A program made the position numbers. 31,139 nt of DNA from a virus (lineage: Duplodnaviria; Heunggongvirae; Uroviricota; Caudoviricetes): IMG/VR virus record IMGVR_UViG_2531839193_000007. One strand, written 5' to 3'. This document shows positions 3,001-6,000 of this stretch, one piece after another. Position 1 is the stretch's first letter; each line of letters begins with the position of its first letter.

Positions 3001-6000
3001 CTGCTTCAGGCATGAACACCAAAAGGCAGATAGAGAAAAGCCCCAGTTAACATTACGCGTCCGGCAAGACGCTTAACATTAATCTGAGGCCAATTTCATG
3101 CTTTGCACATGTAGGTTAGCCTCTTACATGCCGAAAGGCAAGGAGAAGCAGGCTATGAAGCAGCAAAAGGCGATGTTAATCGCCCTGATCGTCATCTGTT
3201 TAACCGTCATAGTGACGGCACTGGTAACGAGGAAAGACCTCTGTGAGGTACGAATCCGAACCGGCCAGACGGAGGTCGCTGTCTTCGTAGACTACGAATC
3301 CAGGAAGTAAGAGTGACCGGGCGGGGAGCTGATCCCATCCCCGCCCACCTCTGATGTGTCAGGCATCCTCAACGCACCCGCACTTAACCCGCCCATCGCT
3401 GTGATCTCTCAGCGTTTCGGCGGGTTTTTTGTTGTTTATTTCCGGTGAATTTGATTCGCGCACCTTCGCAGATAGAATCGACTCACTTAAGTAGCGCGCA
3501 GGGAGAAGAGGGATGGACCCCGAACAGGGGAGAGCTATTTATCTGGAAGGATTCTGAAGATGAAAATCGAAGAATTGCGTGAAATTTTTAGTGAAAATGG
3601 CCTCTATGCTGTGCGCGTTGAGAATGGAGCGATTGTCAGCCATTGCCGCATTAGATGTTTGCAATCTCAACAAAGGAAGAGCGGTGCTGTGTTATTTTAT
3701 TTTTGTAATGGACTTCTGACGGACGGTTTTATTTTGCGTGAGGACGAATTTGTCACATCATTACGGGTTTTGAAAGAGATTGGTTTTAAGGCTGGTTTTC
3801 TGCTTTTGCTGAAGAATAAACTCATCTACAATCTTGAGCAGGATTGAACTCCTGCTGTGTAACACCGTGCCACCGGAGAAAGCCGATGGCACATATACAA
3901 CTGGTCAAACAAACCTCTTCCGGATTACTTCTCCCGGCGACGCCGGAGAGTTGCGATTTTCTGCATCAAATCAAAATAGGTGAGTGGATACACGCAGACT
4001 TTAAGCGTGTGTGTAACTACGCATTCCACAAGCGTTTTTTCAAACTCCTGCAACTGGGTTTCGATTACTGGACTCCGGTCGGTGGGGCGATCACGCCTCG
4101 CGAACGAAAACTGGTGTCCGGTTTCGTTGATTACCTGTGTGAATCAGTAGGCCGGGAACATACGCCAGCTCTGAGCGAAGCCGCAGAGCAATATCTGAAT
4201 ACAGTTGCGACACGCAGAACCAGTGATACGGCATTGCTAAAGTCGTTTGAGGCTTTCCGCGAGTGGGTAGCCATTCAGGCCGGATTTTACACCGAGCATT
4301 TTTATCCGGACGGTAGCCGTGGGTGTCGGGCGAAATCTATCGCGTTTGCGAATATGGACGAAACCGAGTTTCAGCAGGTTTATAAATCTGTTCTGAATGT
4401 GCTGTGGAACTGGATTCTGTTCCGTAAATTTTCCTCTCCGGAACAAGTCGAAAATGTGGCCGCGCAGCTGCTGGAGTTTGCGTAATGGTGGATTTACGTA
4501 AAGCGGCGCGGGGGCAGATGTGCACCGTCAGAATTCCTGGCTACTGCAATCACGATCCGGAAACGTCTGTGCTGGCGCATTACCGACTGGCGGGAACGTG
4601 CGGAACAGCGATAAAGCCACACGATATGCAGGCAGCGATTGCCTGTAGCTCGTGCCACGATTTAATCGACGGGCGGGTAAAAACCAGCGATTACACCAAA
4701 GAAGAATTACGCCTGATGCATGCAGAAGGTGTTTTTCGCACACAAGAAATCTGGAGAAAGGAGGGATATTTATGATTTACCCAACGAATACAGGAAAAAG
4801 CGGAGAACACCTTCGTCTCACCACGCTGGAAAGTGTCTGGATTCAGGGAAAACTACGTATGTGGGGGCGCTGGTCGTATATTGGTGGCGGTAAGACGGGG
4901 AATATGTTTAACCTGATGTTGACCTCTAAAAAGCTGACAAAAACGGCAATTAACGAGGCGCTCCGGAGGATGAAAAAGCAGGTCTGAACAAGTCTGAACT
5001 TGAGGCTTTTTTGCGGGATATGATTAACGGTAAGCAAAAGAGCTGGCTGGCGCATTGTACTGATGCAGAGGCGTTATGTATTGATCGGGTCATAAGTGAG
5101 GTGCTGGCAGAGCATCCAGGATTGATTAGCGTCCTTCGGCAACGGTATGAGGGGCGGGGGATGACCAAACGCAAAATGGCTGAACTGCTGAATGATGCAC
5201 ACCCGAAATGGAGTTTAAGAACCTGTGAAAGACGCATTGAGCATTGGCTAAAGGTGGCAGAATTTATTTTGTACAAACCAATGGTTATGGCTTTTGGTAT
5301 AGAGAAAAAAGTTATTGCTTTTTGACGTAAAAACTGCTTCAATTCTTGTACGCTTCGCAAAGCTGTACCGCGAGGCGAATAGCAGACATGGACATTTGAA
5401 AGAGCCCGCTTTATGCGGGTTTTTTTATACCTGAAAAACGGCACAGGACGTTAAACGTGCTGGTGGTCAGATGAGTTTGCAGATGTGATGACATATGGTT
5501 ATTATTCTGCCTCCGGCCCTTTAGCTCAGTTGGTCAGAGCGAGCGACTCATAATCGCCAGGTCGCTGGTTCAAGTCCAGCAAGGGTGAAGTAGTCAACAA
5601 AAACTGGCCACCGAGTTAGAGTTTTTCCAGTATCGATTTTCCGATTCGTTTGGGGGTAACCCACCGTTATATTCGTGCGGTCTTAGTGCGCTGTAATATC
5701 CAACGATATAGTCCGTTATGGCGTGAGCTGCCTCGCTGAAGCTTACGTAACCCACCACCGGCATCCATTCGTTCTTCAGACTCCTGAAGAAGCGTTCCAT
5801 TGGGCTGTTATCCCAGCAGTTTCCGCGCCGGCTCATACTCTGTCTGATCTGGTATCGCCACAATAACTGCCGGAACTGCCTGCTCGTATAATGACTGCCC
5901 TGATCGCTGTGGAACATCACCCCGCCGGGCTTACCACGGGTTTCCCATGCCATTTCCAGCGCTTTCATGGTGAGCCTGCTGTCCGGCGAGAACGACATGG

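Follow-up and report, generated by a model that had tools for sequence, protein, structure and literature searches.

The only tRNA called in the 31,139-nt stretch of DNA analysed here (the window) is a prophage-borne, tRNA-Ile2-like gene with a CAU anticodon, whose 3′ end has been replaced by the terminus of an IS911 copy. This IS911 stands in the place of 376 bp that held, in intact relatives, the last bases of the tRNA-Ile gene and three further complete tRNA genes. We regard what is left of the gene as a tRNA pseudogene with good confidence, and nothing that we tested runs against the structural account, that is, the anatomy of the locus and the deletion. The case is one of ordinary, already known IS-mediated prophage decay in Shigella sonnei and does not depart from known biology.

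The tRNA remnant and its surroundings

Both ARAGORN and Rfam placed this single tRNA on the + strand at 5515-5588, with the anticodon CAT at 5549-5551 (ARAGORN). The match to Rfam RF00005 scored 59.3 bits (E = 1.3e-10) and passed the gathering threshold of 29 bits, and its alignment marks the 1-72 pair as non-canonical. The result supports the initial annotation, made from the sequence alone, which had reported a CAU tRNA within 5403-5600, a range that also takes in an upstream hairpin with a U-run and an 87-bp spacer. Comparison with intact genes showed that the native part of the tRNA covers 71 of 77 nt (5515-5585, + strand), up to acceptor-stem G70, and that this part matches, at 100% identity, intact copies that NCBI annotates as tRNA-Ile. 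The three bases that follow, TGA at 5586-5588, belong to the IS911 terminus and are taken by the two predictors, and in the alignment, as U71, G72 and A73 of the tRNA. The boundary thus reads GGCCCTTTAGCTCAGTTGGTCAGAGCGAGCGACTCATAATCGCCAGGTCGCTGGTTCAAGTCCAGCAAGGG followed by TGA, with the insertion sequence starting at 5586.

Intact copies of the tRNA-Ile gene end in ...AAGGGCCACCA. The genome-encoded 3′ CCA is absent from the window tRNA, since intact copies end GGGCCACCA where the window has GGGTGAAGTAGT; set against these copies, the last six bases (CCACCA) are missing, and the native 3′ end is gone, as had been proposed. In the chimeric acceptor stem, 5′ GGCCCTT faces AAGGG plus TG, which leaves five native Watson-Crick pairs, a G2·U71 wobble and a G1·G72 mismatch in place of a fully paired 7-bp stem. 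The same comparison confirms the earlier reading that TG has taken the place of CC at the end of the stem and creates a G-G mismatch. A well-paired stem ending before 5586, which would have been at odds with that reading, was found by neither ARAGORN nor Rfam, because both predictors extend into IS911. The acceptor pairs C4-G69 and C5-G68 are kept in the remnant (5′ GGCCCTT / AAGGG), as is the anticodon loop, and the discriminator A73 is restored by coincidence, as the third base of IS911. The Rfam score fell by 11 bits, from 70.5 bits in intact copies to 59.3 bits in the window, and the fold energy weakened by about 5.6 kcal/mol, from -34.8 kcal/mol for the intact tRNA to -29.2 kcal/mol for the chimeric one. 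Because minimum-free-energy folding recovered the cloverleaf for neither the intact nor the chimeric tRNA, only the energy difference was used from the folding.

The IS911 copy is 1249 bp long and lies on the - strand at 5586-6834. It has 11 mismatches in 1249 bp (99.1% identity) to the element that Shigella phage Sf6 carries under the annotation "insertion sequence:IS911", and it starts exactly at 5586, in agreement with the initial annotation. The element begins with TGAAGTAGTCAAC... at 5586 and ends with ...CCACTTCA at 6834, and its inverted repeats (IRs), TGAAGTAGTCAAC... and TGAAGTGGCACAC..., are imperfect, with TG...CA termini. Both reading frames are open on the - strand (orfA, 6460-6762; orfB, 5594-6514) and match IS3-family transposase models, and an A6G slippery site for -1 frameshifting lies at 6505-6511 (- strand). 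At position 7 of the tRNA-side inverted repeat (window 5592), there is an A where the other inverted repeat and the Sf6 copy have G; this A is common to the sister assemblies.

IS911 is flanked by GGG (5583-5585) on one side and TTG (6835-6837) on the other, so that no 3-bp target duplication is present at the insertion, as was also noted initially. As controls, the Sf6 copy is flanked by an AAC/AAC duplication, and a local IS2 (1331 bp, 7571-8901, - strand) is flanked by GTAAG/GTAAG. The missing duplication is explained by the 376-bp deletion and is no argument against the IS911 identity of the element. The IS2 lies inside the class II holin gene, and therefore the lysis cassette is disabled as well.

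Upstream of the tRNA remnant lies a DUF1133-family gene (4772-5325, + strand) that is split by a frameshift, with Pfam DUF1133 matches on both halves. The initial annotation had placed the tRNA downstream of the antiterminator gene Q. The position holds, since DUF1133 occupies the place of Q in the gene order DUF1367-YbcO-DUF1133-terminator-tRNAs-holin-lysozyme-Rz, but the protein itself is a strong match to DUF1133 and is weakly Q-like. Its score against Phage_antitermQ in Pfam was 24.7 bits, below the cutoff of 26; BLASTP against the Q protein of phage 933W returned nothing significant; and its similarity to the phage-21 Q structures 6P18 and 6JNX was weak (E = 4e-4) and covered N-terminal residues 13-39 only. 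"Q-like" is therefore a reasonable label that is positional in the main. The frameshift reflects a run of five A at 4973-4977 where six are found elsewhere (a 1-bp contraction). It is unique to the window, all four sister assemblies and the E. coli relatives having an intact 184-aa gene, and nearly all other differences between the window and its sisters are likewise 1-bp homopolymer contractions, which suggests that the frameshift may be a sequencing error.

Between this gene and the tRNA, folding revealed a GC-rich hairpin (GCCCGC/GCGGG; 5404-5426, + strand) with a stem at 5404-5419 and a U7 run at 5420-5426. The hairpin, missed by a simple terminator scan, is strong when folded (dG -18.2 kcal/mol, z = -5.5), and we assign it as an intrinsic terminator that is tR′-like by position. 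This agrees with the earlier proposal that the tRNA follows the Q terminator. A promoter scan identified a sigma-70-type promoter (TTGCAG-N17-TATTAT; 5477-5505, + strand) that ends 9 nt before the tRNA. Both of its hexamers are conserved with the element annotated in 933W as "pT, putative tRNA promoter" before ileZ, and the spacer has diverged.

Across the prophage, the gene order is DUF977, IS600, QueH, hok/sok, Rem, DUF1367, YbcO, DUF1133, terminator, promoter, tRNA remnant and IS911, followed by holin (split by IS2), lysozyme, Rz, a DedA-like gene, terminase, portal and head genes, with IS1 at 16651. The QueH-family (epoxyqueuosine reductase) homologue at 2241-2927, a tRNA-modification enzyme, is encoded in the same prophage as the lost tRNA array. 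The hok/sok-type toxin-antisense module at 2985-3310 has an Rfam sok match of 117 bits and a 70-aa Hok/Gef ORF at 3098-3310. Two inverted IS1 copies (16651-17421 and 20015-20782), the first of which cuts the prophage short after the head genes, bracket the chromosomal genes for a pgl-like lactonase (17821-18822) and a LysR regulator (18863-19879); this arrangement suggests an IS1-mediated rearrangement or inversion. A second prophage starts beside a ybhC-like pectinesterase gene (window 24601-26703), with a lambda-type integrase at 24601-25671; by gene order, the lambda attachment site lies beside this ybhC-like gene. A match to Rfam sRNA-Xcc1 (68 bits; 26615-26703, - strand) sits immediately upstream of an AntA/P22-type antirepressor gene (25952-26575). 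Together with two 1.26-kb copies of an IS3-family, IS600-like element (599-1864 and 28403-29665; TGAGGTGTACTGGC... ends), the insertion sequences in these 31 kb number six, namely two IS600-like elements, IS911, IS2 and two IS1.

The ancestral four-tRNA array and the probable route of the deletion

Several E. coli genomes have loci with 100% identity to the 286 bp that end at 5585, and at these loci NCBI annotates a complete tRNA-Ile with further tRNA genes directly after it. In one of these, E. coli RMDEC465 (L002), ARAGORN found an array of Ile(CAU) at 7216-7292, Arg(UCU), Thr(UGU) and Gly(UCC). As an IS-free reference we used GCA_031665325.1 (L016), which carries the same prophage without IS911 or the downstream IS2 and is 99.8% identical to window 1858-5585. 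Relative to this reference, IS911 stands in place of exactly 376 bp, comprising the CCACCA of tRNA-Ile, the complete tRNA-Arg(UCU), tRNA-Thr(UGU) and tRNA-Gly(UCC) genes, as well as 136 bp of spacer. The right flank (6835-7570, + strand) covers spacer followed by the first part of the class II holin gene and matches L002 from 7663 onward and L016 from 5604 onward. At 6835 (TTGTCGGTCAGG...) it picks up the sequence 136 bp 3′ of the lost tRNA-Gly. An adjacent deletion had been suspected initially from the missing target duplication; the reference locus bears this out and adds that three whole tRNA genes went with it.

Within the right flank, window 7111-7386 has a cluster of about eight homopolymer contractions of one base each when compared with any related assembly. 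The poly-G tract at 7357-7366, upstream of the holin gene, has ten G in the window, 11 in L007, seven in L012 and L002, and six in L016, and a TGTC just 5′ of the tract is missing in the window. The contraction cluster and the poly-G variation may reflect either noise in the sequencing or a hypermutable tract.

In its ancestral state, the defective lambdoid prophage had a four-gene, rare-codon tRNA operon, Ile2(CAU)-Arg(UCU)-Thr(UGU)-Gly(UCC), with its own promoter, located after the Q-like gene and its terminator and before the lysis cassette. The 376 bp that run from the third-last acceptor-stem base pair of tRNA-Ile to 136 bp past tRNA-Gly were then swapped out in an IS911-associated event. 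Transposition of IS3-family elements follows a copy-out-paste-in pathway, and deletions next to such elements are best documented to arise when a second copy inserts and homologous recombination follows. By analogy, the most likely course here would be two IS911 insertions in direct orientation and homologous recombination between them, which would leave one IS911 and no target duplication.

A one-step deletion by intramolecular or one-ended IS911 transposition, or else a simple insertion followed by an unrelated illegitimate deletion, is an alternative to which we give some, though limited, credence. The locus holds a single IS911 copy, and no intermediate with a target duplication or two IS911 copies was found in the E. 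coli genomes or assemblies searched. In addition, CA stands just ahead of the right-flank TTGTCGG in the IS end as well as in the original target, so a microhomology join is conceivable. Because neither an intermediate genome nor an IR-like target at the breakpoints was found, a one-step event is possible; the breakpoints without IR-like target sequence count on the other side as well, as does the route, described above, by which deletions next to IS3-family elements arise. The many IS911 copies in Shigella (PMC7373316) also argue against a one-step event.

Insertion targeted to an IR-like sequence was considered and rejected, as the local alignment scores of the two breakpoints to the IS911 inverted repeat were 8 and 7, no better than random (null mean 7.3). 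We also asked whether the window IS911 is a chimera of two copies by comparing it with the partial IS911 of a paralogous prophage (see below), but this comparison was uninformative, because the partial copy is 100% identical over 950 bp.

Predicted fate of the remnant transcript

Since the surviving 71 nt still lie behind the pT-type promoter, an RNA is probably made from the remnant. This RNA would carry the G1·G72 mismatch and the G2·U71 wobble, would have no encoded CCA, and would run on, antisense to the IS911 transposase genes, as a trailer. With the first convincing + strand terminator after the tRNA at about 6957, this trailer would be a long one. All known tRNA genes of E. coli and Shigella encode CCA. 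This encoded end is used by RNase P and by the 3′ exonucleases, and it is where 3′ trimming stops; with the CCA absent, the remnant transcript is expected to be poorly processed and degraded. A mismatch at 1-72 is also the feature that keeps initiator tRNA from EF-Tu, and it disfavours EF-Tu binding. Judged from its sequence, the RNA is very unlikely to mature into a functional tRNA.

A second, paralogous prophage with an intact four-tRNA array was found in at least two sister genomes, GCA_900457235.1 and S. sonnei UKMCC1015 (L008 and L013, at approximately 4032-6291). The paralogous array is essentially identical, with one SNP, in tRNA-Gly, and the sequence diverges downstream of it. About 180 bp 3′ of this array, an IS600-like element is interrupted by another IS911, whose sequence matches window 5885-6834 at 100% identity. 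With the paralogous array intact in the sister S. sonnei genomes that were checked, the loss is expected to be phenotypically silent, and the truncation is probably without consequence.

It is improbable that the chimeric gene, its G1·G72 mismatch notwithstanding, still gives a working AUA-reading tRNA. The pathway, to which we give the same low weight, would consist of a 5′ cut by RNase P, trimming to A73 by RNase BN/Z or exonucleases, CCA addition by the CCA-adding enzyme, lysidine formation by TilS and charging by IleRS. E. coli RNase BN/Z and the CCA-adding enzyme can indeed mature CCA-less tRNAs of phage T4, the promoter of the remnant is intact, and its Rfam score lies far over the threshold. 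The sequence also retains C4-G69, C5-G68, the anticodon loop and A73, which the literature gives as IleRS/TilS determinants. However, the end of the stem is unpaired, at a cost of 11 bits and about 5.6 kcal/mol, and RNase P and RNase T would lack a CCA to use. The 1-72 mismatch would count against function too, since such a mismatch is what bars the initiator tRNA from EF-Tu, and the absence of a convincing + strand terminator before about 6957 adds a long trailer to be removed. Finally, the intact paralogue removes selection for function.

Still more doubtful, though conceivable, is a role for the transcript other than as a tRNA. A promoter-driven, tRNA-led antisense RNA that spans the entire IS911 copy, orfB and orfA included, could pair with the transposase mRNA of this and other IS911 copies and so damp transposition, or it could yield a stable tRNA-derived fragment.

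Distribution of the junction and comparison with known systems

The 25-nt junction is present in four other assemblies, which were fetched via neighbouring proteins and include closed chromosomes: GCA_900457235.1, CP060117 (S. sonnei UKMCC1015), CP032523.1 and HE616528.1 (S. sonnei 53G). The right flank is also identical in these four, and the window shares 99.9% identity with them over 5-6.5 kb. Two of the four, 53G and UKMCC1015, are confirmed as S. sonnei, and 53G is placed in phylogenetic group II by the paper cited here. Given this degree of identity to S. sonnei-type assemblies, the source of the window is S. sonnei or something very closely related to it. A search of 5,426 complete E. 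coli genomes found neither the left nor the right junction. The 25-nt junction had no match among genomes taken one per GTDB species, a result that says little because GTDB probably merges Shigella into E. coli, and a literature search found no paper describing the tRNA/IS911 junction. Although the window differs from the sister assemblies mainly in homopolymer lengths, so that its base-level quality may be imperfect, an assembly artefact, in which a repeat-induced mis-join at IS911 collapsed the array, is excluded for practical purposes, because the same 25-nt junction and right flank recur in four independently made assemblies and those genomes assemble the intact paralogous array separately.

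These results bear mainly on annotation. Standard tRNA predictors accept the remnant, so pipelines will annotate it as a complete tRNA-Met or tRNA-Ile, and a pseudogene flag is due. For counts of S. sonnei prophage tRNAs, the loss of three further tRNA genes at this locus is worth recording. The locus also offers a clean, datable IS911-associated deletion, whose importance beyond annotation is small, and the junction could serve as a lineage marker, since it is common to S. sonnei 53G and other S. sonnei assemblies.

The closest known counterpart is the ileZ-argN-argO cluster of the Stx phage 933W and other Stx-converting phages, which, like the window locus, comes after Q, pR′ and terminators and ahead of the late genes. 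In 933W, terminators are annotated at the analogous place, upstream of the tRNA genes, and ileZ, the first gene of the cluster, encodes a tRNA-Ile with a CAU anticodon, shares 93% identity with the window tRNA and is preceded by pT with the same hexamers. The systems differ in that the intact array here, Ile-Arg(UCU)-Thr(UGU)-Gly(UCC), has the holin gene and not stx after it, and in that the window keeps just the 3′-truncated first tRNA gene. On the strength of these sequence likenesses, we regard the window locus as a homologue of the Stx-phage ileZ-argN-argO module with a different gene complement.

The IS911 of phage Sf6, located in ninG, resembles the window copy in its length of 1249 bp, its TG...CA ends, and its orfA/orfB organization with the A6G site. 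However, the Sf6 element shows the duplication (AAC) of a simple insertion, whereas the window element replaces 376 bp without one and, unlike the Sf6 copy, has a G-to-A change at position 7 of its tRNA-side inverted repeat. With the tRNA-Ile2 of E. coli (ileX/ileY), which has a lysidine-modified CAU anticodon, the window tRNA has in common the CAU anticodon, C4-G69 and C5-G68; the window gene differs in being a prophage-borne paralogue without C71, C72 and CCA.

At the level of the genome, IS1, IS2, IS4, IS600 and IS911 have expanded in all Shigella species, with IS-driven genome degradation (Hawkey et al. 2020, PMC7373316). The window follows this pattern of IS-mediated gene loss, in that IS1, IS2, IS600 and IS911 interrupt or truncate prophage genes and are tied to a deletion. 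In contrast to the cases in that paper, which makes no mention of tRNA, the target here is a tRNA operon and not a protein-coding gene.
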